Shown here in pieces: positions 5,114-64,000 of a stretch of DNA of 64,000 nucleotides. Below the pieces are notes generated by a model that saw nothing but the letters and a program-made list of their open reading frames with translations, was not told the DNA's origin and ran no database searches. The stretch lies in NCBI GenBank assembly GCA_039621445.1, contig CP154954.1:44805847-44869846 (forward strand), read 5' to 3'. The stretch comes from Euglena gracilis. Taxonomy: Eukaryota. How positions within the stretch are numbered: the first letter of the stretch is position 1; every line of letters begins with the position of its first letter. Made by a program: the position numbers and the translations under genes.

Positions 5114-5226
5114 CTGCACAATTGCGAAGTATATGCCCGACAGGCATGTTTATGTGTGTGTGCAGTTGCACGTGTGCATGTATGTGAATGTGCACACATA
5201 TGATATGTAGGTGTATGCACCGGAGA

Positions 5227-5412
<186 letters not shown>

Positions 5413-5489
5413 CGCGCGCGTTGGGAGGAATGGAAACCTGGGGAGTCGGAACACCCCCCCGGCGCTGCTGCCTGGCCTTGCCACGGGCA

Positions 5490-8802: not shown

Positions 8803-8835
<33 letters not shown>

Positions 8836-9506: not shown

Positions 9507-9537
<31 letters not shown>

Positions 9538-21775: not shown

Positions 21776-22684
21776 AAAATACATAATGCAAAATACTACA
21801 AAATACATACTACAAAATAACATAATGCTCATAGTGAACACAGAATACTCATCAATTCAACTTTAGAATATTCTTACAAGAATGGAAAAAACATTGGAAT
21901 GGAAAAAATAAAAAAATTGAAATGTGCTCCATCAGAATGCATGCGATAAATATCGTCAAAAATCGTCCTCCCAAAGATGACCTCTGAGAACATGCACATG
22001 GACAGTTAGGAGGTATGTCCCAACCAGGCTTCTTTTTAAGACCCCCGGGGGGGGCGGGGGGGTCCCCCCCACCCAACCAGGGTGGCGCGGGACCCCCCAC
22101 GGGGGGGGGGGGGGGGCGGGGACCCCCCCAAATTGGGCCCGTTAAACGCAATTTTCAAAAAGGTATTCGCGCCGAAAAGGTATACCCGGCGCCTCTGGCG
22201 CGGGACCCCCCCCCCCCCCCCCGGGGGGGTCCGGCCCGGACCCCCCCACCCCCCCCCCCCCCCCGGGGGGGGGGGGGGGTCAGGTTAAAAAGAAGCCTGG
22301 TCCCAACGTCACACCGTTGCTTCGGCAAAAGGAGAAACTATTGCCCTCGCCGCCACAGACCTACTGACCTACTTCGTTCGCGTGCGCAGCCCACTCCACC
22401 CCTGGAGGGAGGGAGCACCTGTCCCTTGGGCTGCCACGTCTGCCCGCCGTCCAGGGAGTGTTCCATGCCGAACGTGGGAGACCTGCGGCGGCGGCCAGGC
22501 GGGTCGTTTGGGGGTGAACCGTTCTGTTTGTTGCCACAAATAAGGCTGGGACTGTGGGAAAACTTTCGGGGTCCGCGCGACAGCGAAATGCCAGGGAAGC
22601 ACACTTTGCAGCCGTGCTGCCCTGGAGGAACAGCAGCCCAAACAGCAGCTGCAGTAGGAGCGACCTGCGCAGCGTGCGTGGCAT
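16462..22684 (-). CDS. EMC10: ER membrane protein complex subunit 10. Exons 22684-22605, 22482-22419, 21172-21083, 20572-20471, 19887-19806, 19368-~19236, ~18033-18005, ~17901-17861, 17465-~17362, 16617-16462
   Basis: Signal peptide MPRTLRRSLLLQLLFGLLFLQG, then MEHSLDGGQTWQPKG, LANDGGAYLLRVP, ISLAPCLLFNTGFKEQYNLY, and EEKSFFQKYWLMILMCVTMMLV (the EMC10 'KSFFxKYW' motif plus a TM helix). Mostly GT-AG introns that join in frame; stop TGA at 16464-16462. Confidence 0.8.
17466..17860 (-). mobile_element. MITE-derived nonconventional intron in EMC10
   Basis: Right end ttaagaaaacccctg; flanks cctggtcc / cttgctcc (6/8); left TIR eroded. Splicing at the 5|3 position of the TSD gives RAEQEEVQ. Interior resembles the repeats at ~2780-2880, 11173-11633, ~43146-43470 and ~48420-48540. 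Confidence 0.6.
20695..20918. repeat. (CA)n-rich microsatellite
   Basis: Read directly. Confidence 0.9.
21710..21773. repeat. (AAAT)n microsatellite
   Basis: Read directly. Confidence 0.95.
22025..22299. mobile_element. hAT-like MITE inside a GT-AG intron of EMC10
   Basis: TIR caggcttctttttaa / ttaaaaagaagcctg; perfect 8-bp TSD gtcccaac (22017-22024, 22300-22307). Confidence 0.9.
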
Positions 22685-24129: not shown

Positions 24130-24517
24130 CCGCCGGCCCGCCGCGCGATGCAGGCGGGCCGCGGAGGGAGACACGCGGGAGAGGGCCCCGGCGGGGGATA
24201 GCGCCCTCACCGGGGCAGCGCATGAGGACGCAGGGCTCCGGGCGGTCGCGCACCGGAGCGCCTCATGGCTGGCGGTGGTGGGGTCCGAAATAGATGAGGG
24301 GGGGGTATGTCGCAGGGGCGGGGCCATGCTGGATGCGTTTCTGCTTGGGGGAATGGGTCCGGCCAGCCGCCAGCACCTTTTCCACCAAAAGGGACAGAAA
24401 CGAACTCCGGGTGCTAATGTGTGTTTGGGTGATGAGTCGTAACGTGTGTGTTCTGTGCCCTTCTGTGCACCGTTGTGTGTGCGTGCGTGCGCGTGCGGGT
24501 GTTGTGTGTTGTGCGCA

Positions 24518-24552
<35 letters not shown>

Positions 24553-30500: not shown

Positions 30501-30800
30501 CCACCCCAGTGGCTATGTATGCAAGGCGAGTAACAGGTTGAAGGATTGGGAGGCGTAGGGATGATCCAACCACCACCCAATGACCCCCCACCCCACCGCA
30601 GACAAGACGACACAAGGGAGGGGGTGATGGAGCACTCACTGTGACAGACAGGGAGTTTCTGAAGGACCCTCAGGGTTGGGGCCATGCTTTGATAAACTCC
30701 CGGGTCGGACATCACCCAAGCCCATGCCATCCCGGGTGGAGCTTCCCTGGCAGGGCGAGAGGTTGCTGCAAGCCGTCCGCCGGCAGGGCCAGCGCTGAAG
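24130..30800 (-). CDS. Possible fragmented multi-exon gene of unknown function (candidate exons ~30800-30660, ~29630-29450, ~27880-27720, ~26990-26924, ~26415-26340, ~24280-24130)
   Basis: Unique, non-repeat islands between MITE blocks that are open on the minus strand. No recognisable motif and frames not resolved. Confidence 0.25.
25053..25331. mobile_element. hAT-like MITE
   Basis: TIR caggcttgtg / cacgagcctg; flanks tgagccat / tgagcaac (6/8). Confidence 0.75.
26421..26920. mobile_element. hAT-like MITE, 500 bp
   Basis: TIR cagggttcgatataagg / ccttatatcaaaccctg; perfect 8-bp TSD gttcagcc (26413-26420, 26921-26928). Confidence 0.9.
28380..28804. mobile_element. MITE with cctgcaacctgtgaccggggg repeats, within a cluster of 'gtcgttggaca' repeats (~25710-26300, ~27940-28315, ~32480-32760)
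   Basis: Inverted ends tac(C)nctag.cgtatgacc / ggtcgtacgactag(G)nta; internal direct repeats. Confidence 0.65.
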
Positions 30801-30819
30801 GTAGGAGGCGGCCTGCACG

Positions 30820-31015
30820 GTGTGTGTGTGTGTGTGTGTGTTGTGTTGTGTTGTGTGTGTGTGTGTGTGTGTTGTGTTGTGTGTGTGTGTGTGTGTGTGT
30901 GTTGTGTTGTGTGTGTGTGTGTTGTGTTGTGTGTGTGTGTGTGTGTGTTGTGTTGTGTTGTGTGTGTGTGTGTGTATGTGTTGTGTTGTGTGTGTGTGTG
31001 TGTGTGTGTGTGTGT
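30820..31015. repeat. (TG)n/(TGTTG)n microsatellite
   Basis: Read directly. Confidence 0.95.
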
Positions 31016-31193
31016 CTGAGAAAAAACTGTGATCCCAGAAGGGATGCCACCGGCGAACTAGTCGCCAGTTGTAAAGAGAGTGCCGGGTGCAGGGGGAGCA
31101 CATACGTGCGCCGTGCATATGTATGCGGCAGGGGGAGATGAGGGAGTGCCGTGTGGTGCTCCGCGTGTGGCGCTGCCGGGGCCGCGGGACTGG

Positions 31194-34100
31194 CTACTGG
31201 AGGACGCAGCACTGCTGCCCGCCGCCGCGGTACTGGCTCATCAGCTCGTGTTGGGACCGGCGCAGCTCTTTCTGAAGCCGGCCGACTTCTGCAGCAGAGC
31301 CGCCCACACGCACCAAGACCTCAAAATGTACAGTGGCCGGTTCGGCGTGATTGGCGTTACCTGGGGAAGGATTGCACTGTGCACAGAATGAAACAACAGA
31401 AATACTTAACAGAAATTTTTTTTTGACAAGACGGTCCGGATCGGGAAGGAGCTTAAGCAAAGCGCAAAGGATTACCTCCCCCCCGTCCTTGACATGCCAA
31501 AGCATGGGGAAGTGCGGTTGGCACAGGTGTGTCATTAACAAGCCGTTTCATATGCACTGCATCATTGACAAAAATATGGCCCTTTTCAAAAATCAAAATT
31601 CGACCCTGAGTGCGCATCAACTCAACTGTGAATGGAACAATAACAAATACACCTTCCATCGTCCCTCTTTTAGGGAGGTTACACCAAGGAGATTGTTCCC
31701 TGGGCCACAGCTGAGCTTTCAAGCTGGAAAGTGCGGTACCTCCAAATTGTCATGTCAAAATCATTGTGTTTTCCAGTAATTCATCGGACTTTTCAGCAAT
31801 TTTCGCAAATCTTGCATGTACAGCATACTAAGTATACAAAAAAGCAAACAATGAACCTGCTTTTTTTTTTAGAGGCCCTAATGCTTCGCATTCTTTGCAA
31901 TGCAATTCCCCAATTTTTTCACCTGGAACTCTCCCAGGTCATATTTCCGAAGGGACAGTATAAGCCTTGCAGACAATCAATGTACCCTGGAAATGTCTTC
32001 CAGCAAAAGTGGCACAGTTGCAATTTCCTCCCCCCCCCTCTCTCTCTGGCTTCGACTTTTGCAGAGCTCCATGAAAGGTGAGGTGAACCAGAACGAGGCC
32101 TAACCAAACCCCCAGCCGGCCATTGCCTCGCGGAGGAGCCCACGTCTGGGGGGCCCTGGTTGGGGTGCTTCGCGCCGAAGTGCTTCCGGAGCACCTCCGT
32201 CGCCCGCTCATACATGTCCACCGCGTTCCGCTGGTCCCCCACCGAGGTGTAGATCGCCGCCATCTGCTCATACAGCCGTGCCACGTCCGGCCGCTGCCCC
32301 TCCCGGGCAGGCCCACCCCCACACCCCCGGGCTGGGGGGGGGGGTTGGGGGAAGCCCCCCCCCCCCAGCTTTGCCTCGACAGGTGTAGGTCTGTACTTTC
32401 CTGTTTTGAGAGTGCGCAGAATTGTGGGGTTTTATTGACATTCTTGCCTCTGGGGAGGGGCCCACAGAAACCCCCCCGTGCATCCAACGACCGGCGACCT
32501 CTGTCGTACGAGGGGGGGGGTTGATGGACAAGGGGTCAAAAAAGGCCAAGTTCTCCTAATTTTAGGAAATTTTGACAAATTTTTGCTCAAAAAGTGCCAA
32601 AGATGGCATTTTGGCCAATTTTTGGCCGATTTTTAGTGCAAAATTCTTCGGCCCGCGCTTTGCGCTGGGACCAAAAATTTGGCCAAACCTAAAAGGTGTC
32701 CTCCAACTGGGGGGGGGGGTGGTTGTTGGACACAGGGGGGGGGTAGCAACACTGGGAGGAGCCTAAAACTGCCCACCAACACCAACACCATGACCTCCCC
32801 CCCCCCGCACCACCCCCGAAGCCCTCGGGAATGAGCCGTCCACCAGAAGGGGGATGCCTGGGGGCGGGTCAGCACCTGCACCGCCTTCCCGAACATCTCC
32901 AGCGCTTGCTCCGACTCCCCTTGCGAGTGCAGCAGCGGAGACGCAGCGGTGCTCCCTGGGCCATGCTGGGGTCCCTTCAGGCCCCTGGGTCCCTCCAGCC
33001 CATGGACCATGACTGGCCCCGGGAAGTTCCAGGTTGGACCACGGAGAACCCCCAAGATGGTTCCAGCGGCCCAAACCCAGGGAGTTGCATCCACAGGGAC
33101 ACACACCCCAGCCCCCCCCCGCCAAAAAGCCAAAAAAAAAACCCCCCCCGGCGCCAGGAACCCCCACGCCCCAAAAAACCGGCTCGGCCCCCACCCCCCC
33201 CACCCCCCCCGCAGCCTCCCCCTACCAATGGTCCCAACCACAGAGTTCTAGGTTACAATTTTTGGGCTGGCACCCATCGCACGAGGGGTTGGGGCATTGT
33301 GAGCAGTTACCTTTGGTTGGTGAGCAATTCTCTTTGGTTGCCATTGGCAAAAACTTGGTCTGCCAGGGCCCTGACATTTTCTCAGCCAGGGCATTCCGAG
33401 GGAAAGTCAATGAGAAATGACCCTGACAGGTACCCAGGACTCTGACAACGTATTACCATGACAGGTTAGCAGGTATCAGTATCAGTTTCCCGGGCAGGAC
33501 CCTGACAGTTCTCGGGCATGGCAGGTTGTTGTGCAAATCCTTTCACACGCAACTGTTGGCAGGTCCCCACCCTGAACCCCGAACACCCACCCCCAACCCC
33601 ACACTCCCCACTACCTTTCGGTGGCTGGGGGGGGGTTAAAACGAGCTCGAACGTTCGACCACCAGCCTCTGTAACGGTCACACACAAACACACATACCCA
33701 CACACACACCCATTCCCCCCCACCCACCTACCCACCCAACCACACCCATCCACCCACCCACCCACACAAGGAGGTGGGGGAGGTACCTGCCCCCCCCCCC
33801 CCCGGAACCTGTCACGATGGGGTTGTCAGGGTTCCCGTTACCAGCCGACCTGTCAGGTGACAGTTTCCCGGGGGTAGGCAGTTTGTATCTGCCTCCCTTT
33901 CCCATCTTCCCGGTGGTGTAAAGCAATTTTTCCAATTTAATTTACTTTATTATATATTTATTTTTTTGAAATTCATTTGGGCCTAATGGACAAGCTGGGA
34001 CCTTGGGGGCATGTGAAGAGCACCGCCGCGGCCGTCCCCAGCTGCTCGTAGGAGAGGGCGACGTCGTCGTGCTGCTCGCCGAGGGCGCGGACCTTGATGT

Positions 34101-36686
34101 CGAGGGCCTTGCTGCACAGCTCGAGGGCGGTGGCCAGCTCCCCCTGGCGGGAGTACGCCTCCGCCATCTTGGAGTGCGTCGGGCGAGGGGCGGGCTGGAG
34201 GGCCACCGGGGGGGGGGGCTGGTCGGGGTGCGATGCGTAGCTGGGGCTGAGAACGCCCGGGTGGACAGAACACGGTTTTATATGTGAGCCCCCCCCCCTG
34301 GGAATCTGTCACTGGACTAATCAGCGAGTATTAGTGGGTGACAGGTCAGCAAGTACAAGACTGGAGGACAGTTTTCCTGGGGGGTCATCCTGGATCTAAC
34401 AGACTAGATCAGAGGGGAAAAAAACTGGCACAAATTGGGGAGCGGGGGGGGGGGTCAAAATTGACATTTTTGAACCCCCAGCCAAAACGCAAAAATCCAA
34501 AAAGCCGAAAATGCAGGTTTTTCACACATTCGAGGTCAGAAGCCGGATAAAAATGTAAGCACTGAGATATTGAACCCCCTTGCCAGCCTGGGGGGAGGTA
34601 CATTATGAGGGAAAACATTATGGGGGGGGTCGTTTGAGGGGCATTTCCACTTGTCACAGCACTATCCACTTTTTATGGCGGCCCAGAATCTGTCTGCCAA
34701 GTTTTTCCCTGATCCGAGGAAAATCTTCTGGCCGCCTTTGGCTGTTTGGCAGGTGGCTTTTGGCCCAAAATATTCGGAAGTGGGGGTACATAATGGGGGG
34801 ATCCAACATGAGGGGGAAGCATGGCATTTTGTTTTAACTCGGGAAATGTGCTTCTTTCAACAAAAATTGTGGCAAATTTCATAGGTGACAGGTCAGGGGG
34901 CACAAGGTGGACAGGTCAGTGGGTACAGAGGGTAGGGGACAGTTTCCTGGGTAGGAGAGTTTCTGGGGGGGACCAGGGATTTATTCACTTTTGAAAGACC
35001 AGGGGGTGGGGGTCCCTCAACCCATCCAGGGGGTATGGGGTCTGGGGACTTCTTTCACTTCTATGGGGGTCAATTTTGGGGTCAAATTCTTTTTCGGCGC
35101 TTCGCACGAAAAAAGCCAAAATGGCCAAAACCCAAAACCCTGGCTCCAGCGGGGGTCCCACAAAGCCGTTGAGGGTGGTGACCTCTCCCTTCCCCTGGGG
35201 GAGGGGTGTTCGGCAAACCCACCCACCCTCCCTTCCCCCGGGCGTCCAACCTTTGAGAAATCCTTGGTAAGACATGATACCTGATGCACACACATGTTTG
35301 CATACACATGTGTGTGTAACTGCACATATCAGATCATCATGTTGTGCTGTGAACCTTGCTCGGGTCTGTTTTCGATTGGGCTTGTACAGTGTGCAGTGCG
35401 TTGCACTTACAAAGTGTTACTGTACAACGGTGACGCATCAATGGAAGCTGATTGCGTGCACTGATCATCGTTGGGCGCTTGTCGAGCCGCACCCCTGTCT
35501 GTGAGACTACGAGAGCCTCTGTACCCCACTCCTCCTCTTGGGCTGCCAACACCTTCTGATACATCCCAAGTGCATCGCATACAGTGGCGAACCTGGTTTT
35601 GAAATGCATCCGAACCCGCAAGCTGCCTGCCTGGCAGTCCTGGGATGGAGGGCATTTTGGTCATGCTTCATGCTTTTCTTGCTTTTCAGGGTATGTGAGG
35701 GCAAAGAAAGAATTCAGTCCACACAGGGGCCAAAACCATGGAACTTCTGTCCAGAGTCATCAGCAAACACAAGCATAATCTCTTGGAAAATGCATCCAGA
35801 GCAGCACATGCTTCGCATACAAGGGTCGTCAATGTAACGTCTGGTGATCACCAGGTGGGGTTGCCACCGCTGTTTTGGCCAGAGACTGCGGGATATTGCT
35901 CCCCCCCCCAAAGCGACTGCTGGCGCGGCTGGCGCCGCACATTTCTGGCTCACCCTGGCCGGTGTTGTTCCCCATGGCGCTGTACACCTCCGCCATCCGC
36001 AGGTGCCCCCGCCCTGCCGTGCAGCGGTTTGGTGGGCTTCGACAAATCATTGGTCGGAGGGGGGCGCTTCTTCCAAGTGAGTCCTTTCGGCCCCGGAACG
36101 TCGCCCTTGCCCAACCCAAACGCCCGAGCAAGCAAGGCCATCGTCACCGGCACGGCAATTCCGCTCGTCAGGGCCCGGGGCACGGCGGGGCGGCCAGACC
36201 GGGCCCGGCGGGGCGGACTGGATCTGGAGGACCCGCTCGTACGCCTCCAGCGCCTCCGCGTGACGGCCCTCCGCCTGGAACAGCTGCGCCATCACGAACG
36301 AGATGGCGCCAATGACCTGGTCCTTGCCCAAGAGGCCGCCGCCCAACGGCGAAGGCACGATCCCCGGCGTCTCGTTCCACTCTGTTTGGCAACCCCTCTG
36401 CTATGCAGGCCGGTGTTGCTCCAACAACAGTCAACTGGATGGGCGGTGGCCTCGCCGGGCCCCAGCACCGCCTCCTTCACGGCCCGGGACTTGGTGTACA
36501 GCTCCAGGGCGCGGGTGCGGTCGCCCTGCTTCTGGTACAGCGTCGCCATCTTGTGGCACATGCGGCCCATTTCCAGCTCCATCGGGCCCCACACTGTCGC
36601 CTTCAGCAGCAGGGCTCGCTCGTACATTGCCAGCGCCTCAGCCCACTGCCACTGGCCGGACGGGGCTACACCCAAATATTGCGCAC

Positions 36687-36723
<37 letters not shown>

Positions 36724-39700
36724 CACAACAACACACACAAACACACACACACACACACCACACAACACACAACACACACAACTCACACACACACACACAC
36801 ACATAACACACAGGGGCAACACACACACACACACACACAACACACGAACAACACACACACACGCAACACACGCACACACACACACACACAACACACATAC
36901 ACACAACACATGCACAAAGCCCCACCCGGGGCCAAGGCTCTCCCGCACCGCTGCCAGGCGCCGGCAGGCCTCCCCCACCTCTGGGTGGTCCGCTCCCAGC
37001 ACCGCAGTCTGCGCGTCCATCGCCTGCTGCAGCAGCTGCGCCGCTTCCTTCAACTGTCCCCGGCGGTGCAGGTCCAGGGGGGTGTGCCATGGCAAGTGCT
37101 CACCAGGGAGCGGGGAAGGAGGGAACGTGGTCTCCGGTGTGAGACGGAAAAGACGGCAAAATCAAAAAACTGAATACAATCATATCAGCGTTCCCCCTCC
37201 CCTGAAGGTTGTTCGGCGAAAATGAGCACTGGGAACAAGGACCAAATTGACACTCGGGGACTGATTGTGCCTGTCAGCCTGTCCACTGCATGAACACTCA
37301 GCGTACTGCCCGACCCATGCACCGAAGTCCGCCCGGCAAGCCTCTCTGCTGAGGTCCGCCGCCACACACAGAGCGCCGCCCTGCGTCACCTTGCGGTGCT
37401 TCCAGCCGTACATCTGGACGTCGCCCGGGCAGGCGTGCCTCACCCGGCGCCCTCAGCACACGGCAGCCTCCCCGTGGCCCGCGCGGCGGACACATGCCAG
37501 CGGAGTCAAAGGCACGGCCGCCGCTGGCGGCCAGCCGCTGCTCCATCACGGGGCCCAGCTCGTCGGCCTGCCGCTCGCTCTTCACCATCTCCTCCGCCAT
37601 GTCCCAGAACGCATCCAGGGCTGCGGCGACCCACCGCACACTCCGCGTGCGCTGCAGTGGGGAGGGCATGCCAATGTGCCCGGTGATCACGGACGAAATC
37701 AACCACACACAAATTGTGTGTCAATGTCCTCTGACTGGTGCACGTGGACGCCCGGAGGGGACGGGGAAGGCAGGTTTCGCTTGGCCACGCCGGAACAACG
37801 CATTTGTGGGGAGTGTGTGGAGCCGACGAGCTGGGGGGCATCGAGAGGATGGAATGGGGTGACCGCGTGATGGGGGTGGGGGTGTCGAACGAAGGACCAC
37901 GGACGTGTCCCGGGCCGCCGCGGGGCGACGGCCTCCGCCTGGATCACGAGGAAGTTGGGCCCCAGCGGTGTGACGAGGCCGAGGCGGCTGGACAGCTCCT
38001 TGCCGGGGAGGTACGCGGAGGCGGTGACCCGGTACAGCTGCCCCGCGGGGAACAGCACCTCCTTGCCGCCCCCCGGCAGCAGCACCGGGCAGCAGTTGGC
38101 GCCAAGCGTCGCGCGGGAAGTCAGAACCTGGTGCGTGCGGGTTGCACTCAAATGGGGGGAGAAGGCAGGCGGAGGATCGATGCAGCAGACGTTGCGAAAG
38201 AATTTTTGGGGGAAGCTGATCCCACACCAAAATGCCTCTGTCACACGGAATAAAAAAACAACAAACACAACAAACTGCAGCACAATGAAAATGTGAACAA
38301 ACCCGTTTCGCCCCCAGTAGAAAACGCTTCAATCCCCCCTTGTGGCTTTTCCCATCCCCGATGAAAGCAGGTGACCATGACTGGTTGCCCCAAGTTGTAC
38401 TTCTCTGCCACAAAAAAAAAAACGGTTTGCCAGCCACCTCTGTTTGTACAAATCATGAGGTTGCCAGAAGTTTTAGCCCATTATTCTCAAAGAGGAGGAA
38501 TCCCCACCCTGGCAAGGCTTGTTTGGGGTCTTCGCTGTCGGCGGGGGTGACCACCACAAGGGCCTTCCGCGGGTCGCGGGCCAGCCAGTCCATCAACGGG
38601 GGCAGAGCACTGCCGGTCGGCCGGGAAGCAATGTCGGGGGGGGGGGGTGTTGGAGGGGGCCGTGTGACTCAGCTGTGGCGTTGCCATATGGCAATACCCA
38701 ATACCCCCTGAAAGGCTTTGGCCGGCAGAAAGTTGTCATCATCCTCAAAACATTGACGACTGCTGTCGAGGAGGTTGCACCTGGTGGGAATTTTGTGGGC
38801 AATCATTCCATGCCTTTTCCACCAACCAATTCACTTCAAACACCCTGGCCGTACAATTCTTTACCAACCCCCGGGGGTCACTCCACTTTTTGAAAAACCA
38901 GGCAATCACTTTTTTTGGGAAACCAGTCAGTCACTATCCCCCTGGGGGGGGGGTCGGCCACTCTGGAGTCCAAAAGGAAACTGACCAAAAACATGCAAAA
39001 AAAGCCCAAAAATTTTCCGGCGCCTTCGGCGCCGGGTCACTTAGTGGTTTTTTGCCGACCCCCCCCCCCCAGGGGGGAAAGGGATCTGGACCAAAAACCA
39101 GTCAGTCACTCTGAAAAAAACCAGCCACCCCCCCTGGGGGGGGGGGTCGTCCAGTGACTAAGTGATTGGCTGACCCTGGCAGGCAGCAGAAGCGGAAATG
39201 CAAAAGACGGGAGTCAGCTACGTTTTGAGAGACCCCCTTGTATGCCTCAATCACATTGGTTTGCCCTCCTTCCTCGCCCGGAAGCATTTGGCAGAGGTGG
39301 CTGCGCTGGGTGGTGGGGGGTAACATTGCGCCCTTGAAAACAAACACAAACAAATTAAACTCAAGAAATAACGGGGGTGTGCTCCCATCTGCCAGCACTG
39401 GGGGTGGCCGGGCCCTGGTGGGCTTCGGGGAGGTCGCCGCCAGGGCGACGTCGCGGAAGCGGAAGAGGTGCAGCAGGCGGTCGCCGCCGGGGACGCGGCG
39501 GCACATCTGCTGCGCCTCCGCCACGTTGACGACGCAGTACGAGGCCCCGCGGTGGCGGTGCTTGAGGGACAGTGACTGCCGGCAGGGGCGGCGGCGGTGG
39601 GGCCCCGGTGGTTGGCAGGGCCGTGGCCACCAAGCGCAACAGGACCACACAACCTGGCAACCCAATGGGAAAATGGCACAGTTGCAGGCATCGGAACATA

Positions 39701-49600: not shown

Positions 49601-52600
49601 GAAAGGGGGGGAAATGGGAAACGTGGGAAAGTGGGGAAACAAGAGAACGCTCTGAGAGGGACACTTTGACAGCTGGGAGGGGGACCAAAGGCCACCGTGG
49701 GCAACCACAGGCGTGAGCTGGGGAATGGGTAGAGCCAGGGATGTATGGGATGCCCTGAAGGGGGGGGGTGTCCGGACCCCTCCCAACACAGAGGGGGGGG
49801 GTCGAACCCCCCCGCCTCGAGACGTAAAGGAGCCAGGAAAGTCTTCATAATAATAATATAATTAATAATAATAATCAAGGATAATCAAGGGGCTGGATAC
49901 CAAGCAAATACTCTTGAAAAATCCCTGAAAAAATACCAAAAATGCTCATTATTATTTTAATTTTTTGACATGGAAACATAAAACATCCAACAAAGCCGGG
50001 GGAACTGGAGGGGGGTGGCTAATCCTCCCCAATTTGGACCATTCGCAGGTGAATAACTCGGGCCTGGCGGGGAGTTGGGGTCAAAAGGAGGTGATTCGGA
50101 AACTACAGTCCCTGGGCGTAAATTCCCCCCAGGGAGGGTTTTTTGGGCTCTTGTCCAGGGGGGGGGGGAATTCTCGGGGGGGGATTTACTCCCAGGGACT
50201 GTAGGGATGCAGTCGCTCGCGACTGAAGAAAACTCCAGGAACGAGGCCGGGGTCATGGTGATAATCGGCGGTTTTCATCAACTACCCAGGGGCTGGGGGG
50301 GGGGGGAAGGGGGTTCTACCACCCCTCTTCCCTGGTGGTAGGCTTCGCTCTTGCTCTAAAGAGATAAGAGCTCTGCCCCCCCCCCCCCCCCCGACCACCC
50401 ACCTCAATACCAACAGACCAACAGACTTCACATGCATCCCTGGGAGGGGCACATGCTGCATAGCCAGGATTTGCATGGGCCGCAAGGATGTGTTGGGAAT
50501 GGGCCAAAGCCAGACAAAGAAGTACAAAAAAGTGAAAGATAAAAAACTAAAAAAAAAAAAAAAAAAAAAATAAATGACAAAAAACATATTGAAAAAGAAA
50601 ATGGAAAAATAATAGATAAAAAAAGGAGAAAAAGAAAAATAGAGGTTAGAACTAAACTTTTTGCTGTTGGGAACTCCCCTCCACCTTGGGTGTTGGAATT
50701 GTCTGGCACACGGGGCTAATTAGCCCCTCTCTGAGGTGGGGGGAGGGGGCTGGGGATAACTATGCAAAGGGATCTATGGTATGCCATGGCACACCAAAAA
50801 CATGGATATGTGATACCCTAGGATTGTGTTTGAACGGTGCAGACCTCATCAGCAAAATCCATTTCATGTGGCCGTCAGACCTCTCGTCTTTGGAGCTCTT
50901 CCTTTCCTTCCTCTCTTCCTCCTTGCACATTGAAAAGCCCAAACCCCCACCCCCCGGGGGCTGGGCGACAGCGGGACAACAATGGTCCACACACGGCAGC
51001 AGCTGAGGGCAGAGAAGGGGACGGACGAATGACAGGAAGGAGCGGGGGCGGGGCAAAAAGCCTGAGGGGCTTCTTTGAGGCCCGAGGTTTCATCCGTGGT
51101 CCCTTGCAGCCCGGACAGTGTTTGCCGACCCGATGTGGTTGCCTGCGGAAGACGGGTTGATCATGGGGGGGGGGGAGACGTTCATTGCAATTTGATGCTT
51201 TGGCGCAGATCCCTGTTGGCCATGCCTGCAAAATCAAACAAAAATTTCTTGAGAGGAGGTGTCACCTTTTCCATTAAAACAGCTCAACTCTCAGACCAAT
51301 AATTAAATCAACAACAGCCCCTAAGGCATTCTTTTCAAAAACCCCGGGGATCAATTGGCCAGCGATTTTGCAAGCCACCAGAAAGAAGCCACAAGTTAGA
51401 TCCCTCGGGGGGGGGGTCCGGGGTCCTCCCGAAAGGGGGAAAAAAAAACGTTGAGGGGGAAATAGGACTTTTTTCGGTTTTTTGGGGGGGCTGACTTTGC
51501 TCCAAAAATTGCCGAAAATGGGCATTTTTGGCAGGTTTTGGGGGGCCAAAAATTTCCGGCGCTAAAATTTTCTACTGGCCAGCGCTGTCGGTGGATCCCC
51601 CTGTGAGGGTCCACTGGGATGCCCACTGGCAAAATTAGGACAAGCTGAAATCCAGCCCCTCTCCTTCCCCCTGGTGCACTGCGAACCCTTTCCCAGAAGC
51701 CTGCTCGAAGGTGTATGGGTTGCTGTTGGCAAAAGAAAAATCATGGCCGAAAGATCTGGAGAGCAGGGGGAAAAATCTAACCAGAACCATGAAAAGCCCA
51801 AATTCCATTTTTATCTGACTCTCGATCGCTCGTTCTTGGAACAAGTATATCAAGCATAACACACAGAACATAATGACACCCACACACACCCACTGCTCCA
51901 AAAGTGGGAAATGAAAAGGTGACCATTTCGGCGGCTGGTTCCGACGTTTGGAGGAGGAATACTGGTGTCCAGTGAAGGAGAACAGATCTGGGAAATGAGA
52001 GAGAGAATGTGGGTGTGTGTGTTTGCGTGTTTGCAGAGGTGAATTTTGGGACGCGTCTGTCTGCATCTCAGAAACTGGGTTAGGCTGGGAGGGCAAGAGG
52101 GGATGACGGGAGGGGGCAGCAAGAGACGGTGACATGGAACTCTGCGGTGGCAGGCCCCATGTTAATGGGGAAGGGAAGGAGGACCCTCGCCCATTCGGGC
52201 CTGCGAGGGCTGCAGGCAGCGGTGCGGTGGGGCTGTGGGGTCAGGACACCTCGGGAGGCCATGGAGACCAATGGTGGTGCACTCCAGCCATGACGCGGGG
52301 GCGAGGGGCACCAAGGCTGCTCTCCTGTGGCCTGCCCCCTAATGGGACCATTTGTAGTATGGGTAGTCTTGGCGTACCCCCCACCACCACCTGTGGGGGT
52401 TCGGGGATTCCCGTACAGCCCTGCCCCTCGTCCCCAGGGGGGGGGGGGGTGGGGGGCAGGGTTGCCCCTTGTCGGGTGGGTGGGTGGATGGGGCATCCGC
52501 GGGGTTAACGAGCAGGTCGTTGCCACCCTTTAGAATTCCGAAAACTATCCCGGAGCATTGTGTGCAGGGGGGTTCGACCAACCCCCCTCCCCTAATTTCC

Positions 52601-55732: not shown

Positions 55733-58700
55733 TTAGCAGCGGGGCGTCGCGGCGTCGTACAGGTCCTCCGTGGCGCACGACGGCTGGCGGTACACGGCGT
55801 GGGGAGAGGCCGGCTCCGGGTGGGGGGGCCGGTCTAGCAGGCAGCCGTCCGTCAGGGCGAGCAGCTCGAACACCACCATCTCCACCGCTGCCCACAGACC
55901 GCCCCTGAGAGCGTGGGGGGGGGGGGGGCACGAACAGGCTTTTGCTTAAGGACCCCCGGGGGGGGGGTACTGGCTAGCCAATCGGCTAGACACTGGAAAA
56001 AGTGGACTAGCTAGACCCCCCCCCCCCCCCGGGGGGGGGGGGGGGGGGGGTCCAGGGGTCCCCCGGACTGGAAAAAAAATTTTCCTCCGGCGCTGTGCGC
56101 CGGAGGAAAAATGAGGTTTTTTACAGGTTTTTGGCTGATTTTGTTCAAAAAATTCCCAAAAATGGCCAAAAACGGGCATTTTTTGGCATTTTTGGGGGTC
56201 CCAAAAAAATTTTTCGGCGCTTCGCGCCGGTCACTGGAAAAAAATTTCCCACTAGCTAGCCCTGCTAGCAGACCCCCCCCACCGGGGGGGGGGGGGGGGG
56301 CTACGCAACCCACTAGCCAAATTTGGACTAGCTGCAGTCCAGCCCCCCCCCCCGGGGGGGTACTGCAATCCCTTAAGCAAAAGCCTGGGCACGAAAGGCA
56401 CACCAGCTGCGGGGGGAAACGGAATCAGCGTCATGGGTAGGTCAGGAAACAAAGCAAATGGCTGGCCCGACGTCTAACTTCAGAGAGGTCGAAAACATTT
56501 GGAGTAAACTTTCTTGACCGCAAACCGAAATGAAATAATGGAAACCCTGCGAAGCTGTCCATGCAGAGGTTCTTTTAGGATCCAGGTGGAGGGGAGTCCC
56601 CCCCCCCCGACCCCCCCCTGCCCACTGGGTACAAAAAGACTGGCAGGAAGCTTCAAAAGTGCCCAGAATTGTGTTTTCACGTATTTGTTTGCAGCAAATT
56701 GACAGAAACAGGCTACAAAAACATAAGTCTGCTGGGTGCGCCAGGGAAGAAAAAATATTTTTTGGTTGCAAGGGGTTCCCTGGACACCCCCTGGGGAAGG
56801 GGGTTCGGACCCCTGCGAACCTCCCCCCCTCCCCCCCTACAAAACCAAAAAACACTCAATTAATACCAGCCCCCCCCCCCCCGGCCCGGGTCACCAAACT
56901 TAAAAAAAAACGTTTCTGTGCCAATGTCCACCGTGGAAAGCTCTGACAGACATTACACAATAAATACAATGGGGAAGTTGTTAGCATGTTGTTGTGGCGG
57001 CCCGAAACTACTGGCCCCCCGCCCCGGGGGGGGGGGGCAGTACTTAATCCAGGGGGGGGGGAGTCAGACCCCCCGCCTTGAAGAAGATGGACCCCCCCGT
57101 TCCGTTTCCCCCCGCCCCTCTACCGCCCCGGATGGCTGCTCCGGTGCCCCGCGGTGCCTGCGTCCGCGCCCACCTCACCCTCATCGAGCTGAACCAGATC
57201 CTGCAGGATCCGGACCAGACTGAGGCCGCGCTGCGGCGCCACGCTTTGCTACGGTGGGGCCGCCCCTGGCTCGCCCTGTCGGTCTCCCCCGCACGCCCGG
57301 TTGCCCATGGGGCGACCGCGCGCCGCGCACAGACGGGTGGTCATTCACGGGAGGTTGGGTGGCCGGCGGTTGGGCCGCGGCCGGCCGCGGCCCAACCAAA
57401 ACAGTGCTTTGGTTGGGCCGCGGCATGCCGCGGCCCAACCAAAAAAAATTTTTGGTTGGGCCGCGGCATGCCGTGGCCCAACCAGGAACGAATTTTAATG
57501 ATAAAATTTTTAACTGGTTGGGCCGCGGCATGCCGCGGCCGGCCGCGGCCCAACCAAAAAAAAATTTTGGTTGGGGCGCGGCATGCCGTGGCCCAACCAG
57601 GAACGAATTTTAATGAAAATTTTTTTCACTGGTTGGGCCGCGGCATGCCGCGGCCGGCCGCGGCCCAACAAAAAAAATTTTTTGGTTGGGGCGCGGCCGG
57701 CCGCGGCCCAACCAGATTAACGTCAGAATTAGTTTCGTTGGGCCGCGGCCGGCTGCGGCCGACCGTGACCCAACCCAAAAAAAGAAACGGGTCGCGGTCG
57801 GCCGGCCCAACCCTAACCCTAACCCTAACCCAAACCCTAACCCTAACCCCAACCCCAACCCCAACCCCAACCCCAACCCTAACCCTAACCTTAATCCTAA
57901 CCCTATCCCTAACCCTAACCTTAAACCTAACCCTAACTCTAACCCTAACCCCCATCCGAGCTTCAAATAACAAAATCCCTTCTGTGTTGGCAACATACTC
58001 GGGGGCTAAGTCGTTTTTGTGGCTCACTTTGGCATAGGCGGGGGGGCTCTGCCCCCCCCCCCGCACCCCCCCCTCAAATAACAAAATCCCTTCCATGTTG
58101 GCAATATACTTGGAGGGCTAAGTCCTTTTTGTGCAAATTTTGACTTATATTGAAAATCCAATGGGGAGAGGTGTTCTTTTGCCAAAAGTGGCCCAAAATG
58201 GATTTGGGTTCGCTGGGAACGTTGTAGAGACCAATCTAACAACGTTGAGCGGGAAATATTCTGCTGTTTGGACAAGAATTGTAACCCTAACCCTACTCCT
58301 TCAAATAACCTCATAAACTCTGTTTGGCCACAGTGAAACGCCATCATGAAATCCTTTGCCAGCAAAAAAAACCGAAAATTAAAAGAATAAAAAAAAGAAT
58401 TAAAAAATAAATAAATAAACCAAAGAATAAATAAAAACAACCAAAAAATAAAATAAAAAACAAAAGAAAAGTCATGTAAAATGACATCAGGTGTGGGGGG
58501 GTGTGGGGGGGGGCGGGGGGGGGGGTGGCGGGCGTGTGCAGGGTCTGGGGCGTGATAAATTGGCCCCTACAAGGTACCAGCTACCCCAAAGAGCCGCCCA
58601 ACTAGGGTTAATACACATGGGGGGACCCTCGCTCGGCGCCTTCGGCGCCTCGCTCGGGTCCCCCCATGTTTTTAACCCTAGTTGGGCGGCTCTTTGGGTT

Positions 58701-61700
58701 CGCTGGGTACCTTGTAGAGACCAATCTAACAACGTTGAGCGGGAAATATTCTGCTATTTGGATAAGGATCGTAACCCTAACCCTACTCCTTCAAATAACC
58801 TCATGAATTACTTTTGGCCACAGTGAAATACCATCAGGAAATTCTTTTGCAGTAATAAAAAATAAAAAATAAAAATAAAAAAAAGAAAAATAGTAAACAA
58901 GAAATAAATAGTACGGTGGTTTGCAGAACAGTGCTCGGACAGTCATGGGAGGTTGGGTCGCGGTCGGCCGCGGCCGGCCGCGGCCCAACCAAAAAAATAA
59001 TTTGGTTGGGCCGCGGCATGCCGCGGCCCAACCAAATCGATTTTTTGGCGATAAAAAATTCGGTTGGTTGGGCCGCGGCCAAACCAATTTAAAATTTTGA
59101 AAGCCAAAATTCGCCGTGGTTGGGCCGCGGCATGCCGCGGCCCAACCAAAATTCTGTTTTGGTTGGGCGACGGCCGGCCGCGGCCGGCCGCGGCACCCAC
59201 CTCCCACAGACCAACCTCCCGTGACATCCCACCCGCGCACAAACAGCACAGACAGCGACCCCGGAATGCGTGCGACCCGCGATTCTCGGCCCCGCGCACG
59301 CAGAAAGGGAAGGGGAAAAGAAGATGGACCGGGGGGTTAAAGAAGATGGCCCTGAGGGGGTAAAAGAAGATGGACCCCCCCGGATTAATTACTGCCCCCC
59401 GGGGGGGGGGGCAGCAGTTTCGGGCTGCCGTTGTTGTTTCTCTTGGTTGAGGCTGTTGTCAGCCACAGCAGTCCGGGTCTCATCAAAAACTCCAACGAAT
59501 CATGGAAAAAAATTCATGAAGTTATTTGAATGGGTAAGGTCGAATTCTTGTGCATATCATTCAATCCTTCCTAAAGAATGTCATAATGTTTGCCTCCACA
59601 GGTGCTCAGTGAATCCAAAGAGTCGTGAAACTGAGGTTACACTACGTCTCAAGGTTATTCACGTGGCACCGTTTCGAGGTTTTTCACGAGGGTTAAAAAA
59701 TGAAAAAACCGAAAAAAAAATTTGTGGTGGTCACTTTCCGTTGGCAGGAAGCTGAACCTGCAGTCCCAAAATACTTATATTTTGTGCCTTGTGATTCCTG
59801 TTCCTTCCCCAGTCGCACAATGACCGAGTGGACAGTGCTGCATATCACCGACACAATTTAACCCCTAATCTGTCGTTCATCCGCAGCCGCTCCACTGCAG
59901 CACGCCGGCACAGTCCCATTGTGTTCATGCAGGACGGGGCATCTCCCCACACCAGCCGTTCCACCATGAACTTTTTGAGTAGGAACCGTGTAAATTTGCT
60001 GACCCCCTGGCCTCCGCAGTCCCCCGATTTAAATCCGGTGGAATACTGCTGGGCTTGGCTTGCTTCCCGCATTGTTGGGAAGCGCTTTTTGTCATGTGAT
60101 GAGCTGTGGACAGCTCTCCAACGGGAGTGGTCCCAGGCCTCCTACCCTGATCCCAAATTTGTATGGCAGCATGGTCCGTCGTTTGACGGCTGTGCAGGTG
60201 GCCAAGGGCCTGCACACCCGCTATTAAACAACATAAGAGGCACCAGGGGAGTGTGTCAAGCGATATTTGTCACCCGATGTGCTGCTTTGCCTGTCATTTG
60301 AACGTCATCTCACAGAAACAGAATTTTTCATTTTTTAACCGACGTGAAAAACCTTGAAACGGAGCCACATGAATAATCTTGAGACGTAGCGTAACACACA
60401 TTGACATTGGGGACAAGCGAGGGGTCAAATGTGCTGAGCGAAGGTCCCCTGCACCTCAGTTGAGCAACTCTTTGGGTTCGCTGGTGCCTTGTGGGGATCA
60501 ATTTGACCACATTATGATGCGACCCGATTGGGGTTGGACCGTTGTCGTCGGGCAGTGCTCGTGAATGCCCACCCCTGGGGAAGGACCCACCGGGGGGGGG
60601 GGGGGCTGGCCTGGCCTTGCCCTTCAGGCTGACGCCCTCCAGCCGGCGGGCGACCACCCGCCGCTCCACCGCTTCGTGCAGCTGCGGCCCGATGAGGATG
60701 CGCGTCTTGCGCTCCTTGTTGAGCCCCTCCAGCCGGCTTGGCCGCAGACGCCCCTCTCGGCCGGGCCCACCCACAGGAAAGGGGGGCCGAGCCCACGACA
60801 CCAGCCCGCCTAACGCCCACAACTGCCAGCGAGCGGCGGGGGCGGGTAGGGGAGGGCGGGCCTGGCCGCCACGTTGACCACGTCCCCCACCACGGTGTAG
60901 TTCATGCGGTGCTGCGAGCCGAAGATGCCCGCCCGGACCTGCCCCGCCTCCAGGCCCATCCGCCCCGTGAGGCGGAGGCGCCGGGCACCCAGACTGGGGG
61001 GGGGGGGAGGGACGCTCGCCGGGGGGGGGGGGGGGTTGGGGCACGGTGTGACGGCGCAGCGTCCCTTTGCAGGGCGCTGGCCGCAGTCCCACCGTGCCGG
61101 GGCAGCGGTCCCCGACGGAGCTGAGTGGACTGAGATGGGCACGGCACGGAAGGTACCGGCAAACCCCCACCGCCGATCAGAAGCCCTATCAGTCTGCTAT
61201 TCTGCACGTTGGTTAGCGCCGGGTAACGCCCGGGGGGGGGGGGGGGCTTCTGTCAGGCACAGGTACAAGCTTTTATCAAGCATTGTTCCTTTGGGGGGGT
61301 TTAATTTTAGAACTTTGGTTGAAAATACCGAGGGGGCTTCTACCAGGGAAAGGTTACCATACCTCTTATCGCCTCCGACTCTTGGAAATTCCGACTGGCG
61401 GGCGGTGATGGTGATGGGGTGCAAAAAAACGGGAAGGTCCCCAGGACCCCCCCCACCAAAAGAGGTCAAAATTTTCCTTCCGGCGCTTTGTGCCGAGACT
61501 TCAGGCACTTTTTATTTAGACAGCTATTTTTGCTCAAAAAAGTGCAAAAAAATGGCAGTTTGGTCAATGATTTTTGGCCAATTTTGGGAGCAAAAGTTTT
61601 CGGCCCAGCGCTTCGCAATTTGGGACAGGGACTTCTATTCTGTTGGGGTTTGGTACTTGGGCTGGGGGACAAAGTCCCGAGGGCGGTTTGCTGGTCTTCC

Positions 61701-62378
61701 AAAATGACACATGAGCCAATATGACCCCAACACGGCACCTTCCTTGAAATTGGAGGGGGGGGGTTGAGTGGGAGGTGGCAGGGGCACACGCCGCAACCCC
61801 CCCAGCCCCCCCCCCCCCCCGCACCCTCCCGGCCTTCGGCAGGCGCGCCGCGGGCGGAGGCCGGGGCCGTCCTGCCCGTGCAGCATCCAGTCCGCGCACT
61901 CCAGCGCCGCGCAGCACGCCCGGAACTCATGGTCCGCCGTGGGCAGGCTCCGGCTTAAGGACCACGGGGGGGACGCTGGCTGGCCATTTTGCTGGACGCT
62001 GGGGAGAACAGGAGGTCTTGCCACCAGCAACACCTCCCAGGGGTCCCTGACGGAAAAAACGTTTTTTTTTTCCTCTGGCTGTGCGCCGAGGTTGAATGAG
62101 GATTTTAATATGTTTTTGGCCCGAAAAATTCCCCAAAACAGACATTTTTGGCATAATTTGGTGGTTAAAAATCCTTGTGCCAGTGACTGGGAAAAACTCT
62201 GCCAGCCCTGCTAGCAGGCCCGGAGGGTCCACCAGTATTTCCACAAATTTGGCCAAATTTGGACTACCTGCGGTCCATCCCCTTCCCGGGGGGGGGGGGG
62301 GGAGGTACTGCGAACCCTTAAGCAGAAGCCTGGCCACGGGGGACGGCGTGTTCCAGAATGCCATGACACAGTCCCCGG
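55733..62378 (-). CDS. Class III adenylyl/guanylyl cyclase catalytic domain, 3' exons (~62378-62336, 61938-~61877, ~60984-60868, 60739-60617, 55889-55733); 5' part not found in window
   Basis: Spliced translation [28 protein letters not shown]...[40 protein letters not shown]...RILIG...VSLKGKAVEMVVFELL. Catalytic Asn/Arg (NVASR) intact, with Thr at the substrate-specifying position as in class IIIb-type adenylyl cyclases. Confidence 0.9.
55935..56387. mobile_element. hAT-like MITE nested in the cyclase intron
   Basis: Perfect 17-bp TIR caggcttttgcttaagg / ccttaagcaaaagcctg; perfect 8-bp TSD ggcacgaa (55927-55934, 56388-56395). Confidence 0.92.
57132..57253 (+). CDS. Isolated plus-strand coding-like exon, possibly a Merlin/IS1595-like transposase N-terminus
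   Basis: ATG...HLTLIELNQILQDPDQTEAALRRHALLR|GT with strong GC3 codon bias. The family assignment is resemblance only. Confidence 0.35.
57368..57811. repeat. Array of about 9 copies of a 30-bp palindrome (ggttgggccgcggcatgccgcggcccaacc and variants) with A/T spacers
   Basis: Read directly; the consensus unit equals its own reverse complement. Confidence 0.9.
57808..57951. repeat. Interstitial telomeric repeat (CCCTAA)n with CCCCAA variants
   Basis: About 24 hexamers read directly. Confidence 0.9.
58575..58710. repeat. Foldback hairpin element
   Basis: cccaaagagccgcccaactagggttaa...catggggga / tcccccatg...ttaaccctagttgggcggctctttggg. Confidence 0.8.
58951..59197. repeat. Second array (about 5 copies) of the same palindrome
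   Basis: Read directly. Confidence 0.85.
59640..60391 (+). mobile_element. Internally deleted Tc1/IS630-mariner transposon with a transposase remnant
   Basis: 49-bp imperfect TIRs (cactacgtctcaaggttattcacgtgg... / ...ccacatgaataatcttgagacgtagcg) flanked by TA on both sides. Confidence 0.9.
59828..60227 (+). pseudogene. Tc1-like DDE transposase C-terminal fragment (frameshift near 60140)
   Basis: VFMQDGASPH...WPPQSPDLNPVEYCW...WSQ, then LIPNLYGSMVRRLTAVQVAKGLHTRY* in a shifted frame; 35 residues between the second D and the E. Confidence 0.9.
60740..60867 (-). other. Nonconventional intron (128 nt)
   Basis: Minus strand ggcCAG...CTGcggcc|A with no GT-AG. Removal restores the conserved [12 protein letters not shown]. 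Confidence 0.85.
61939..62335 (-). mobile_element. Nonconventional intron consisting of one hAT-like MITE (element 61944-62332)
   Basis: TIRs caggctccggcttaagg / ccttaagcagaagcctg; flanks gccgtggg / gccacggg (6/8); homologous to the free copy at 55935-56387. Removal restores [11 protein letters not shown]. Confidence 0.85.
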
Positions 62379-62590
62379 CAGGGAGGCGGGTTTTGCCCAG
62401 GAAAGGAGCGACCCTCGGAGTGCAAGGCCACGACTTAAAGTATTGGATGCAACCGGGGGGGGGTTTCACAAAAAAAAAACAACCCCCCCAAAAAACGCAA
62501 GGAGAGGACGGCCGGGGGGCGGTGGTAGCTGCGTTGCTGGGCGGGGTCCAGGCAGTGGGCAAGCACCTATAGTCAAGCCCAAAAATTTCC

Positions 62591-62671
62591 CCATTTTAGG
62601 CCATTTTAGGCCATTTTAGGCCATTTTAGGCCATTTTAGGCCATTTAAGGCCATTTTAGGCCATTTTAAGG
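62591..62671. repeat. 10-bp minisatellite (ccattttagg)x8
   Basis: Read directly. Confidence 0.95.
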
Positions 62672-63029
62672 TATAGGTGGGGGTTCTGAAAATCATAATT
62701 TTGCGTCATTTTTGTCCCGAAAAAAGTATCATAACGTGTGCAAACCTTCTCTTGTTCAGTAATAACAAATGTACATCCAAAAAAGCATGCAAAATTCAAA
62801 ACAATGGGAAGCTCAGCAAGTCTATATTCATATTCATAGAGGAATTCTGAACAATAAGAATTTACGGTAGATAAAATTTTCAGAGAAAAAAAAAACGTTG
62901 GACAAAAAATAAGTTTTTTTTAATTTGTGCTACCAAAAAGGCTCCCGTTTTTTTTTGTGAATTCTACACCATTTTGCGGAATTTCGCAATAAGAAGTCAT
63001 TTTTTCTGAAAGATAATGCTGCTGCCTAA

Positions 63030-63269
63030 TGAAATTCAATTTGATTTTGGCATTGTTTCAGTCATGTATATCATTCATTTTATTATTATGATAAATATTA
63101 AAGAATAATTATTAAGATCCATAATACAAACAAAAAATTATTTCCAAAAAAATACAATGAATTTTTATTTGTATTACAGATCTTAATAATTATTCTTTAA
63201 ATACTTATCATAATAATAAAATGAATGATATACATGCCTAAAACAATGCCAAAGTCAAATTGAATTTCA
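63030..63269. repeat. AT-rich long inverted repeat (arms about 110 bp)
   Basis: tgaaattcaatttgattttggcattgttt...aagaataattattaagatc / gatcttaataattattctt...aaacaatgccaaagtcaaattgaatttca. Confidence 0.9.
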
Positions 63270-64000
63270 CCAGGCAAAAAGTGAAATATATAAACCTAAT
63301 CCTGTACCTATTGACGGATAACATATATCATATGCTATCATATTATATATCCCAATATTATTCCAATTTTATTGATAATATGATTGCAGTAATAATTATT
63401 GTACAATTACACATTATATCAATAAAACTTATTTTTACTTAGTACATATATTTATTAATTTCAACTTATTTCTCTTTTATTACTAAAATTGTATTGTATG
63501 AAAACATGTGTTATTTGTATTACTAAAACTGCATTAAATATAATGTTAATGTTATATTTTTAATTCTACAATTAAAAATTGATGACTATAAAATCTTTAT
63601 AAATATGGAAAATATATCAACAAAATTAATAATAATAAAATACCCACACGAAATATCCACATAAAATACATAGAATATCCATAATAATTTTATGTCTATT
63701 CATAAAAATTGAAACATTAAATTTACTTACAAAAGTTATATTTATATGATGCTAGAATTTTATATTTCAATTGAGATTTTTCCAACATCTTTCATCTTTG
63801 TTTTGACTTTTTCCCCATGCTTCCGTTTCATTATTTGCGAAACAAACATCGGTGCAAACCAACAAGATAGGAGTAAGAAAAAATAATATGTCCAAACCTT
63901 CAAAATTCAGCCACCAAAAAAAGGTTGGGGCTGTGAATTTGGGGACTGATACGAGTGTTATTAGGATAAAACCATGGGCCTTGTGGGGCTGTGCTCCTCC

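Follow-up and report, generated by a model that had tools for sequence, protein, structure and literature searches.

In a 64,000-nt stretch of the Euglena gracilis genome (contig CP154954.1, positions 44,805,847 to 44,869,846; hereafter the window, to which all copy counts and scans refer), a minus-strand gene identified by homology as a class III adenylyl/guanylyl (nucleotidyl) cyclase contains an intron built around a complete MITE (miniature inverted-repeat transposable element), a second full copy of which lies elsewhere in the window. The sequences at 61944-62332 (copy 1, in the cyclase gene) and 55935-56387 (copy 2) are end-to-end copies of one MITE, and the intron carrying copy 1 is a new, well-documented member of the euglenid-type nonconventional introns. 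Taken as a whole, these data are very probably best explained by a hAT-like MITE that inserted in a cyclase exon and is excised from the RNA as a nonconventional intron. In euglenids, most introns are excised by a pathway to which the GT-AG rule does not apply. In 2013, at a time when euglenid transposons were unknown, the inverted repeats of these introns led to the proposal of a MITE origin (PMC3935182). This was still a hypothesis in 2016, with the origin described as "a mystery" (PMC4770533), and was repeated as one in 2024 (PMC11282704, PMC11170887) and in 2025 (PMC12621601; PMC12501133, which states that their "origins ... remain unclear").

The initial annotation of this DNA had claimed that the cyclase intron is a whole copy of the MITE at 55935-56387, and had suggested a pairwise alignment as a check. 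Consistently with this claim, copies 1 and 2 aligned from first base to last (MAFFT and global alignment), with 296 matches in 360 aligned columns (82%), and the left, internal and right motifs quoted in that annotation were all present in the alignment. The global alignment score was 170, as compared with -181 ± 15 (maximum -137) for 200 shuffled versions of copy 2, -131 for the reversed copy and -38 for its reverse complement. A 17-nt terminus pattern (CAGGCTNNNGCTTAAGG) occurred four times in the window, at both ends of both copies, against a chance expectation of 0.40, and none of 100 shuffles reached four occurrences. CAGGCT and AGCCTG marked the precise limits of the similarity between the copies. 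The terminal inverted repeats, compared over their outermost 14 nt, matched at 14/14 positions in copy 2 and at 12/14 in copy 1. With a third, degenerate copy, the family in the 64 kb amounted to two full copies (389 and 453 nt) and one eroded one. The reading frames of the MITE copies matched no Pfam family, and a metagenome scan with a 24-base motif internal to the element gave 0 matches.

To follow the fate of copy 1 in RNA, we used reads and contigs of four runs mapped to 59400-64000, comprising raw RNA-seq reads (X21), contigs of a DNA run (X1) and two further contig sets (X15 and X16). The junction had been predicted from a conserved protein motif, and a transcript spliced elsewhere would have spoken against it; the RNA joint, from 61935 to 62333, lay at the predicted junction, and the mRNA reads as predicted. 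This joint skips 397 nt, that is, the element plus 8 nt, and can be slid by 3. It was carried by 8 X21 reads (5 + 3) with 8 different starts, by one X15 contig (depth 208) and by one X16 contig (depth 37.7), and by 0 contigs of the DNA run, in which contigs at 61806-61997 and 62308-62463 span both element/exon borders. Moreover, X21 depth within the intron (62018-62171) was 0 and 0.23, as compared with 17-28 in the bins of exon C. The span of 61936-62340 originally given to the intron corresponds to the element with both of its 8-nt flanking repeats; the part removed is the element plus 8 nt. A second set of X15 contigs (depth 166), with joints at 61936/62335 and 60974/61865, had the same exons and joints differing by one or a few letters; most simply, it represents a close paralogue with the same exon borders. 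On the minus strand, the frame of exon A meets no stop codon across the entire MITE (61930-62595, 222 codons), probably a chance effect of GC-rich DNA; as 397 is not divisible by 3, read-through of the element would still put exon B out of frame.

The assignment of the gene relies on homology to a paralogue, P0002 (764 aa, PF00211 precomputed), which aligns to exons A-D and is 90% identical to exon D. Exon C on its own matched PF00211 with E = 0.0013 and 18.8 bits, under the 21.9-bit cut-off. P0002 bears the eukprot name EG_transcript_1910, a style of name employed for the Euglena gracilis transcriptome, in which nucleotidyl cyclases are an expanded family (PMC6366073). At the site of copy 1, P0002 runs unbroken through ..AFWNAPSPVKDHEY.. 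(..APSPVKDHEY..), with PSPV present once, and tblastn found the Pro-Val/Pro-Thr codons twice in the genomic DNA, one in each flanking repeat. The putative insertion would have hit the Val codon within ..NTPSPVADH... P0002 also has 15 extra residues (574-588) between ..DKYIG and GDCVMAFW, the ends of which match 62378-62403, a segment that the X15 loose end places in an intron of the present gene; the paralogue's transcript may thus have kept a piece of intron or been cut at another nonconventional site.

We then examined target-site duplications and element termini across the window. CAG...CTG pairs were sought whose inverted repeats agreed at 11/14 positions or more and whose flanks formed a perfect 8-bp duplication; four elements qualified (17441-17857, 22025-22299, 26421-26920 and 55935-56387, the last being copy 2), and none did in 30 block-wise shuffles. 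Repeated for other lengths of duplication, the scan returned a single element each for 4 and 5 nt and none for 6, 7, 9, 10 or 11 nt; when all 64 terminal trinucleotides were tried, CAG alone gave multiple matches outside microsatellites, tandem repeats and homopolymers. Allowing up to 2 mismatches in the duplication raised the count to 13 pairs, copy 1 among them, against a shuffle mean of 2.1. Because of the perfect 8-bp duplications and the CAGGC or CAGGG starts, found in 8/8 clear elements, these appear to be hAT-like, non-autonomous DNA transposons. The ends of hAT elements typically start pyrimidine-A-purine-N-G, an end consensus that CAGGC and CAGGG match in all eight. An 8-bp duplication is not exclusive to hAT, and a P-, Merlin- or Mutator-like superfamily would also account for it; no transposase with matching ends was found among the window frames scanned against Pfam (349 stop-to-stop frames of at least 90 aa out of 358 listed, the nine omitted all lying in the microsatellite block 8040-9880). 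Such another superfamily is less likely, the agreement of the termini speaking against it. The sole transposase fragment of the window was a Tc1/mariner DDE_3. Reconstruction of the empty site for the eight elements gave a recognisable coding frame at the cyclase site only, long open frames at the other reconstructed sites being uninformative in GC-rich DNA. The CAGG...CCTG elements fall into several families, most with internal C-run/G-run palindromes and with a subterminal motif ..TTAAGG or ..ATATAAGG; those at 15349-15703 and 26421-26920 have ends in common. hAT elements show local hopping, which two copies 5.5 kb apart would suit, although at 18% divergence this is a side remark.

With respect to splicing, the initial annotation needs one correction: the intron is of the nonconventional euglenid type and not GT-AG. 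The flanking repeats are identical in their first three bases, so that RNA allows four equivalent registers, which read CA..GC, CC..GG, GC..CG and GG..AC on the coding strand; none has GT-AG, GC-AG or AT-AC borders. The register 61939-62335 reads GGC-CAG...CTG-CCCAC^G (^ marking the exon border), an exact fit to N3-CAG...CTG-N5 followed by a purine. The euglenid code, 5'-N3CDG-/-CH'GN5-6 followed by R, was defined by knock-in genetics, with a donor spacer of strictly 3 nt and an acceptor spacer of preferably 5 nt (Nomura et al. 2025, PMC12501133). Among the four equivalents the cut would accordingly fall in the GG..AC register, under a code known from E. agilis and E. gracilis. In the predicted RNA fold, the terminal helix takes in the CAG/CTG pair and both blocks of the terminal inverted repeats and reaches into the flanks, with an energy of -175.1 kcal/mol versus -152.5 ± 6.7 for shuffles (z = -3.4; 0/100 shuffles as good). 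The two flanking repeats, GCCACGGG and GCCGTGGG, differ by two transitions, both within the 5-nt spacer removed by splicing, and in the modelled helix both would convert G.U wobbles to Watson-Crick pairs.

The borders also bear on the possibility that a flexible U2-type spliceosome removes the element at noncanonical sites, a mechanism put forward for Fritillaria and certain diplonemids; an adaptable spliceosome is discussed in PMC12621601. No register that starts with GT, GC or AT also ends with AG or AC, and the strict 3-nt donor spacer with CAG/CTG pairing is unlike recognition by U1 or U2AF, which leaves this explanation improbable. GT-AG models, namely a cryptic GT within the element or a GT...AG intron between exons B and C, were contradicted by the RNA joints. 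Three further introns of the cyclase gene were also non-GT-AG. Intron C-D fits the code (GGC-CAG...CTG-CGGCC^A), and, provided that the shared CGGG is taken to be slidable, the end of the intron upstream of exon A reads CTG-CCGGG^G. Intron B-C was not GT-AG in any of its 10 registers and is flanked by a 9-nt direct repeat, GCCTCCGCC; it was tried as a CAG/CTG or CGG/CCG variant of the code, with no fit in the 10 registers. Three introns open identically on the coding strand with GGC-CAGGC (62333-62335, 60865-60867 and 60614-60616), and introns C-D and D-E end alike (..AGGGGC(G)GTCTG). The common starts hint at one family or at a target preference. A pattern search with the shared ends of introns C-D and D-E matched mostly C-rich low-complexity sequence, and a common family of these two introns is therefore only suggested.

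Copy 2 had been described as free. It is indeed not flanked by exons, and no coding frame or Pfam family was found around it; by homology and splice code, it probably belongs to a large nonconventional intron of 4,727 nt that comes next in the cyclase gene, at 45 nt from the intron 3' end. Exon D ends ..GGGCAA^GGC-CAG, and 45 nt past copy 2 the coding strand reads CTG-TGGGC^AGCGGTGGAG... Joined in this way, exons D and E are in frame and read ..KGK-AVEMVVFELLAL.., matching the paralogue's ..KGKAMGMSVYELL.., and, of all six-frame matches that the window offers to residues 704-730 of P0002, the stretch in candidate exon E scores best (41, the next 36). Searched against the protein collection, the exon E translation gave 18 candidates, none with E <= 0.01. 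Besides copy 2, the putative intron D-E contains the Tc1/mariner fragment and tandem and telomere-like repeats.

Table 1 Features of the cyclase locus and MITE-like elements of the window (positions in window coordinates; exon E and intron D-E are candidates)
Feature	Position	Strand	Length	Remarks
MITE copy 1	61944..62332		389 nt	ends CAGGCT...AGCCTG; within cyclase coding sequence
MITE copy 2	55935..56387		453 nt	perfect 8-bp target-site duplication GGCACGAA at 55927-55934 and 56388-56395
Third, degenerate MITE copy	~51320..51703			found by blastn; right end ..AGCCTG recognisable, left end eroded, without duplication
Flanking 8-nt repeat GCCACGGG	62333..62340		8 nt	upstream on coding strand; first five coding-strand bases retained in mRNA
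Flanking 8-nt repeat GCCGTGGG	61936..61943		8 nt	downstream on coding strand; 6/8 identical to GCCACGGG
Cyclase exon A	62336..62377	minus		5' border 62373-62377; loose end at 62377 (X15); preceding exon outside the window
Intron with MITE copy 1	61939..62335	minus	397 nt	four registers allowed by RNA, 61936-62332 to 61939-62335
Cyclase exon B	61853..61938	minus		RNA joints and P0002 alignment
Intron B-C	60971..61852	minus	882 nt	joint 60970 to 61853 in X15, X16 and 7 X21 reads
Cyclase exon C	60868..60970	minus		PF00211 match, RNA, P0002 alignment
Intron C-D	60740..60867	minus	128 nt	nonconventional; loose ends at 60740 and 60868
Cyclase exon D	60617..60739	minus		ends ..VSLKG; P0002 homology
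Putative intron D-E	55890..60616	minus	4,727 nt	GGC-CAG...CTG-TGGGC^A; homology and splice code
Candidate exon E	55736..55889	minus		starts AVEMVVFELLAL.., runs to stop codon; six-frame match to P0002
CAGG...CCTG element	2107-2690			duplication 7/8
CAGG...CCTG element	15349-15703			duplication 7/8
CAGG...CCTG element	25053-25331			duplication 6/8

These data suggest a simple sequence of events. A non-autonomous transposon with inverted ends CAGGCT...AGCCTG, making an 8-bp duplication, would have inserted into the coding sequence of a euglenid cyclase, at a site that would have read ..CCCGTGGC.., present once. In the pre-mRNA, the inverted ends would form a long helix in which CAG (+4 to +6) pairs with CTG (-8 to -6), and the machinery of nonconventional introns would make its cuts 3 nt ahead of CAG and 5 nt beyond CTG. 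As these two spacers together equal the 8 bp of the duplication, excision would take away the element together with one duplication length and restore the original, pre-insertion frame, whichever the orientation of the element. For the cyclase site, the measured skip (389 + 8 = 397 nt) demonstrates removal of the element and one duplication length, and the duplication length may be the general reason for the 3/5 spacers. The cut register among the four equivalents, the insertion history, the hAT assignment and the identity of the machinery are inferred.

Two other origins were weighed, both of them very improbable. Direct repeats left by double-strand-break repair with filler DNA and no transposition, as offered in PMC4770533 for the 8-nt repeat of a recently gained E. 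agilis gapC intron, would suit the imperfect (6/8) repeat of copy 1, but filler DNA would yield neither two end-to-end homologous copies with inverted termini nor a constant 8 at four CAG...CTG elements with 0 at 6, 7 and 9-11. Spread as RNA, in which excised intron circles would re-enter the genome through reverse splicing followed by reverse transcription and the intron would be the parent copy, could draw on the reported release of nonconventional introns as full-length circles, following removal of the conventional introns (cited in PMC11282704), but an RNA-borne copy would bring along the donor's 3-nt and 5-nt spacers, whereas the homology stops at CAGGCT/AGCCTG, and would make no target duplication, whereas copy 2 perfectly duplicates GGCACGAA.

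Several points weigh against the insertion and RNA excision of a hAT-like MITE. The window holds just two full copies and one eroded copy, the former at 82% identity, and DNA depth in the element was 269-337 as compared with ~200 in single-copy exons (at a likeness of at least 92%). Such low copy number, identity and near-single-copy depth indicate that the MITE subfamily is old, and its mobility is therefore putative. The flanks of copy 1 match at 6/8 positions as a direct repeat and are equally 6/8 complementary as an inverted repeat, so that this flanking repeat alone is weak evidence of a duplication. The Pfam scan returned no hAT transposase, nor any transposase with matching ends. Firm RNA support for the 397-nt joint amounts to the 8 reads of one run, X21, the RNA status of the X15 and X16 contigs being only a guess. 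Moreover, RNA cannot separate the four cut registers, the choice among which rests on the published code, and intron B-C of the same gene lies outside the N3/N5 code.

The intron containing copy 1 shares with the known nonconventional introns of Euglena gracilis and E. agilis the lack of GT-AG borders, a CAG that occupies +4 to +6, a CTG that occupies -8 to -6, the 3-nt and 5-nt spacers and a purine as first exon base (PMC12501133), together with terminal pairing and direct repeats that make the border slidable (PMC12501133, PMC3935182). It differs from them in belonging to a repeat family, whose second copy is not exon-flanked and has an intact 8-bp duplication. In the literature searched, which left aside subscription papers and the SI appendix of PMC12501133, no nonconventional intron had been assigned to a family with non-intronic copies, hAT was not named, and the 3 + 5 spacers were never tied to an 8-bp duplication; "duplication" and "hAT" occur 0 times in PMC12501133, and "8 bp" and "8 nt" 0 times in PMC11282704. 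A related precedent is intron 4 of gapC in E. agilis ACOI 323, a recently gained nonconventional intron with eight-nucleotide repeats at its junctions, which was read as possible break repair, with no related copy reported (Milanowski et al. 2016, PMC4770533); in contrast, the 8 nt here correspond to the length that an inverted-repeat element with several copies duplicates on insertion.

Outside euglenids, introners (Micromonas, Aureococcus, dinoflagellates and others) are similarly non-autonomous DNA transposons that possess inverted ends, duplicate their target and turn into introns on insertion, but they are spliceosomal, with GT/GC-AG sites arising from element and duplication, the duplication being 3 nt in Micromonas (PMC11282704). 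Introner copies are many and near-identical, whereas the MITE copies here differ by 18% and have an 8-bp duplication and no canonical site; the cyclase intron lacks the GT/GC-AG sites, supplied by element or duplication, at which introners are spliced. A 2025 survey of introners mentions no euglenid (PMC12130899). The MITE introns of Fritillaria borealis also have inverted ends, target duplications and non-GT-AG borders, but prefer AG-AC/AG-AT, are thought to involve a modified spliceosome and have no CAG/CTG helix with fixed spacers as their defining feature (PMC11282704). The cyclase intron may finally be set beside Ds of maize, another case of a hAT-type non-autonomous element in an exon that is removed from RNA. 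Removal of Ds uses cryptic spliceosomal sites and is usually imprecise, whereas the cyclase removal comprises the element and one duplication and restores the frame. The splicing of Ds elements out of host transcripts is reported in Giroux et al. 1994, as cited in PMC3935182.

Other features of the window were recorded. Within the putative intron D-E, the Tc1/mariner transposase fragment lies at 59795-60298 on the plus strand (PF13358 DDE_3, E = 9e-11), of which further copies must exist, since contigs from DNA and RNA depart from it at several positions; tandem units of ~115 nt at 57359-57818 and 58952-59240, with GC-rich palindromes (GGTTGGGCCGCGGC..GCCGCGGCCCAACC), flank an interstitial telomere-like CCCTAA/CCCCAA run at 57806-57960. 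The intron upstream of exon A holds a 10-nt satellite, (GCCATTTTAG)n, at 62580-62670, with a summed X1 word depth of ~0.8-1.2 million in two bins over 62480-62787 (~200 in single-copy exons), and a segment at 63001-64000 with 24% GC and an X1 depth of 26,000-107,000; this AT-rich window end had no Pfam match. A coatomer beta C-terminal platform domain at 1180-5499 (minus strand) is split over two exons, with PF14806 positions 17-65 at ~4975-5121 and 65-97 at ~1846-1944 and an intron of ~3 kb between them; the MITE at 2107-2690 lies ~160 nt before the 3' end of this intron, resembling copy 2 in the cyclase gene. Tetratricopeptide-repeat frames (TPR_10/TPR_12, best E = 2e-16) at 31922-37161 (minus strand) are presumably exons of one gene split by (CA)n-rich introns. 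Long microsatellites occupy 5208-5470, 8437-9560, 24462-24570, 30398-31031 and 36645-36923, and consist of (CA)n, (TG)n and (TACA)n, the last of which makes up an inverted pair of 300 nt. Neither a tRNA scan nor Rfam at its gathering threshold gave a match in the window.

The cyclase intron is a direct case for a transposon origin of euglenid nonconventional introns, and the locus offers a checkable example of the proposed MITE origin, in which an RNA-verified intron has a sister copy with an intact duplication. The relation 3 + 5 = 8 would explain why coding insertions are tolerated, why most introns of this type are slidable and why eight-nucleotide repeats were seen at an intron of recent gain. 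Far more tentatively, as a possibility to which we would give somewhat less than an even chance, the euglenid nonconventional code may be the RNA image of hAT-type MITE insertion, and the CAG-CTG class, which accounts for 157,875 of 649,158 E. agilis introns (Dataset S7), may stem largely from MITE bursts. If so, recognition of transposon ends in RNA would be the task for which the excision machinery arose or was co-opted, and any CAG...CTG element landing in an exon, in either orientation, would be excised so as to restore the empty site. The question of origin thereby becomes testable genome-wide, through the spectrum of repeat lengths, the family structure of the introns and the search for an autonomous hAT partner.

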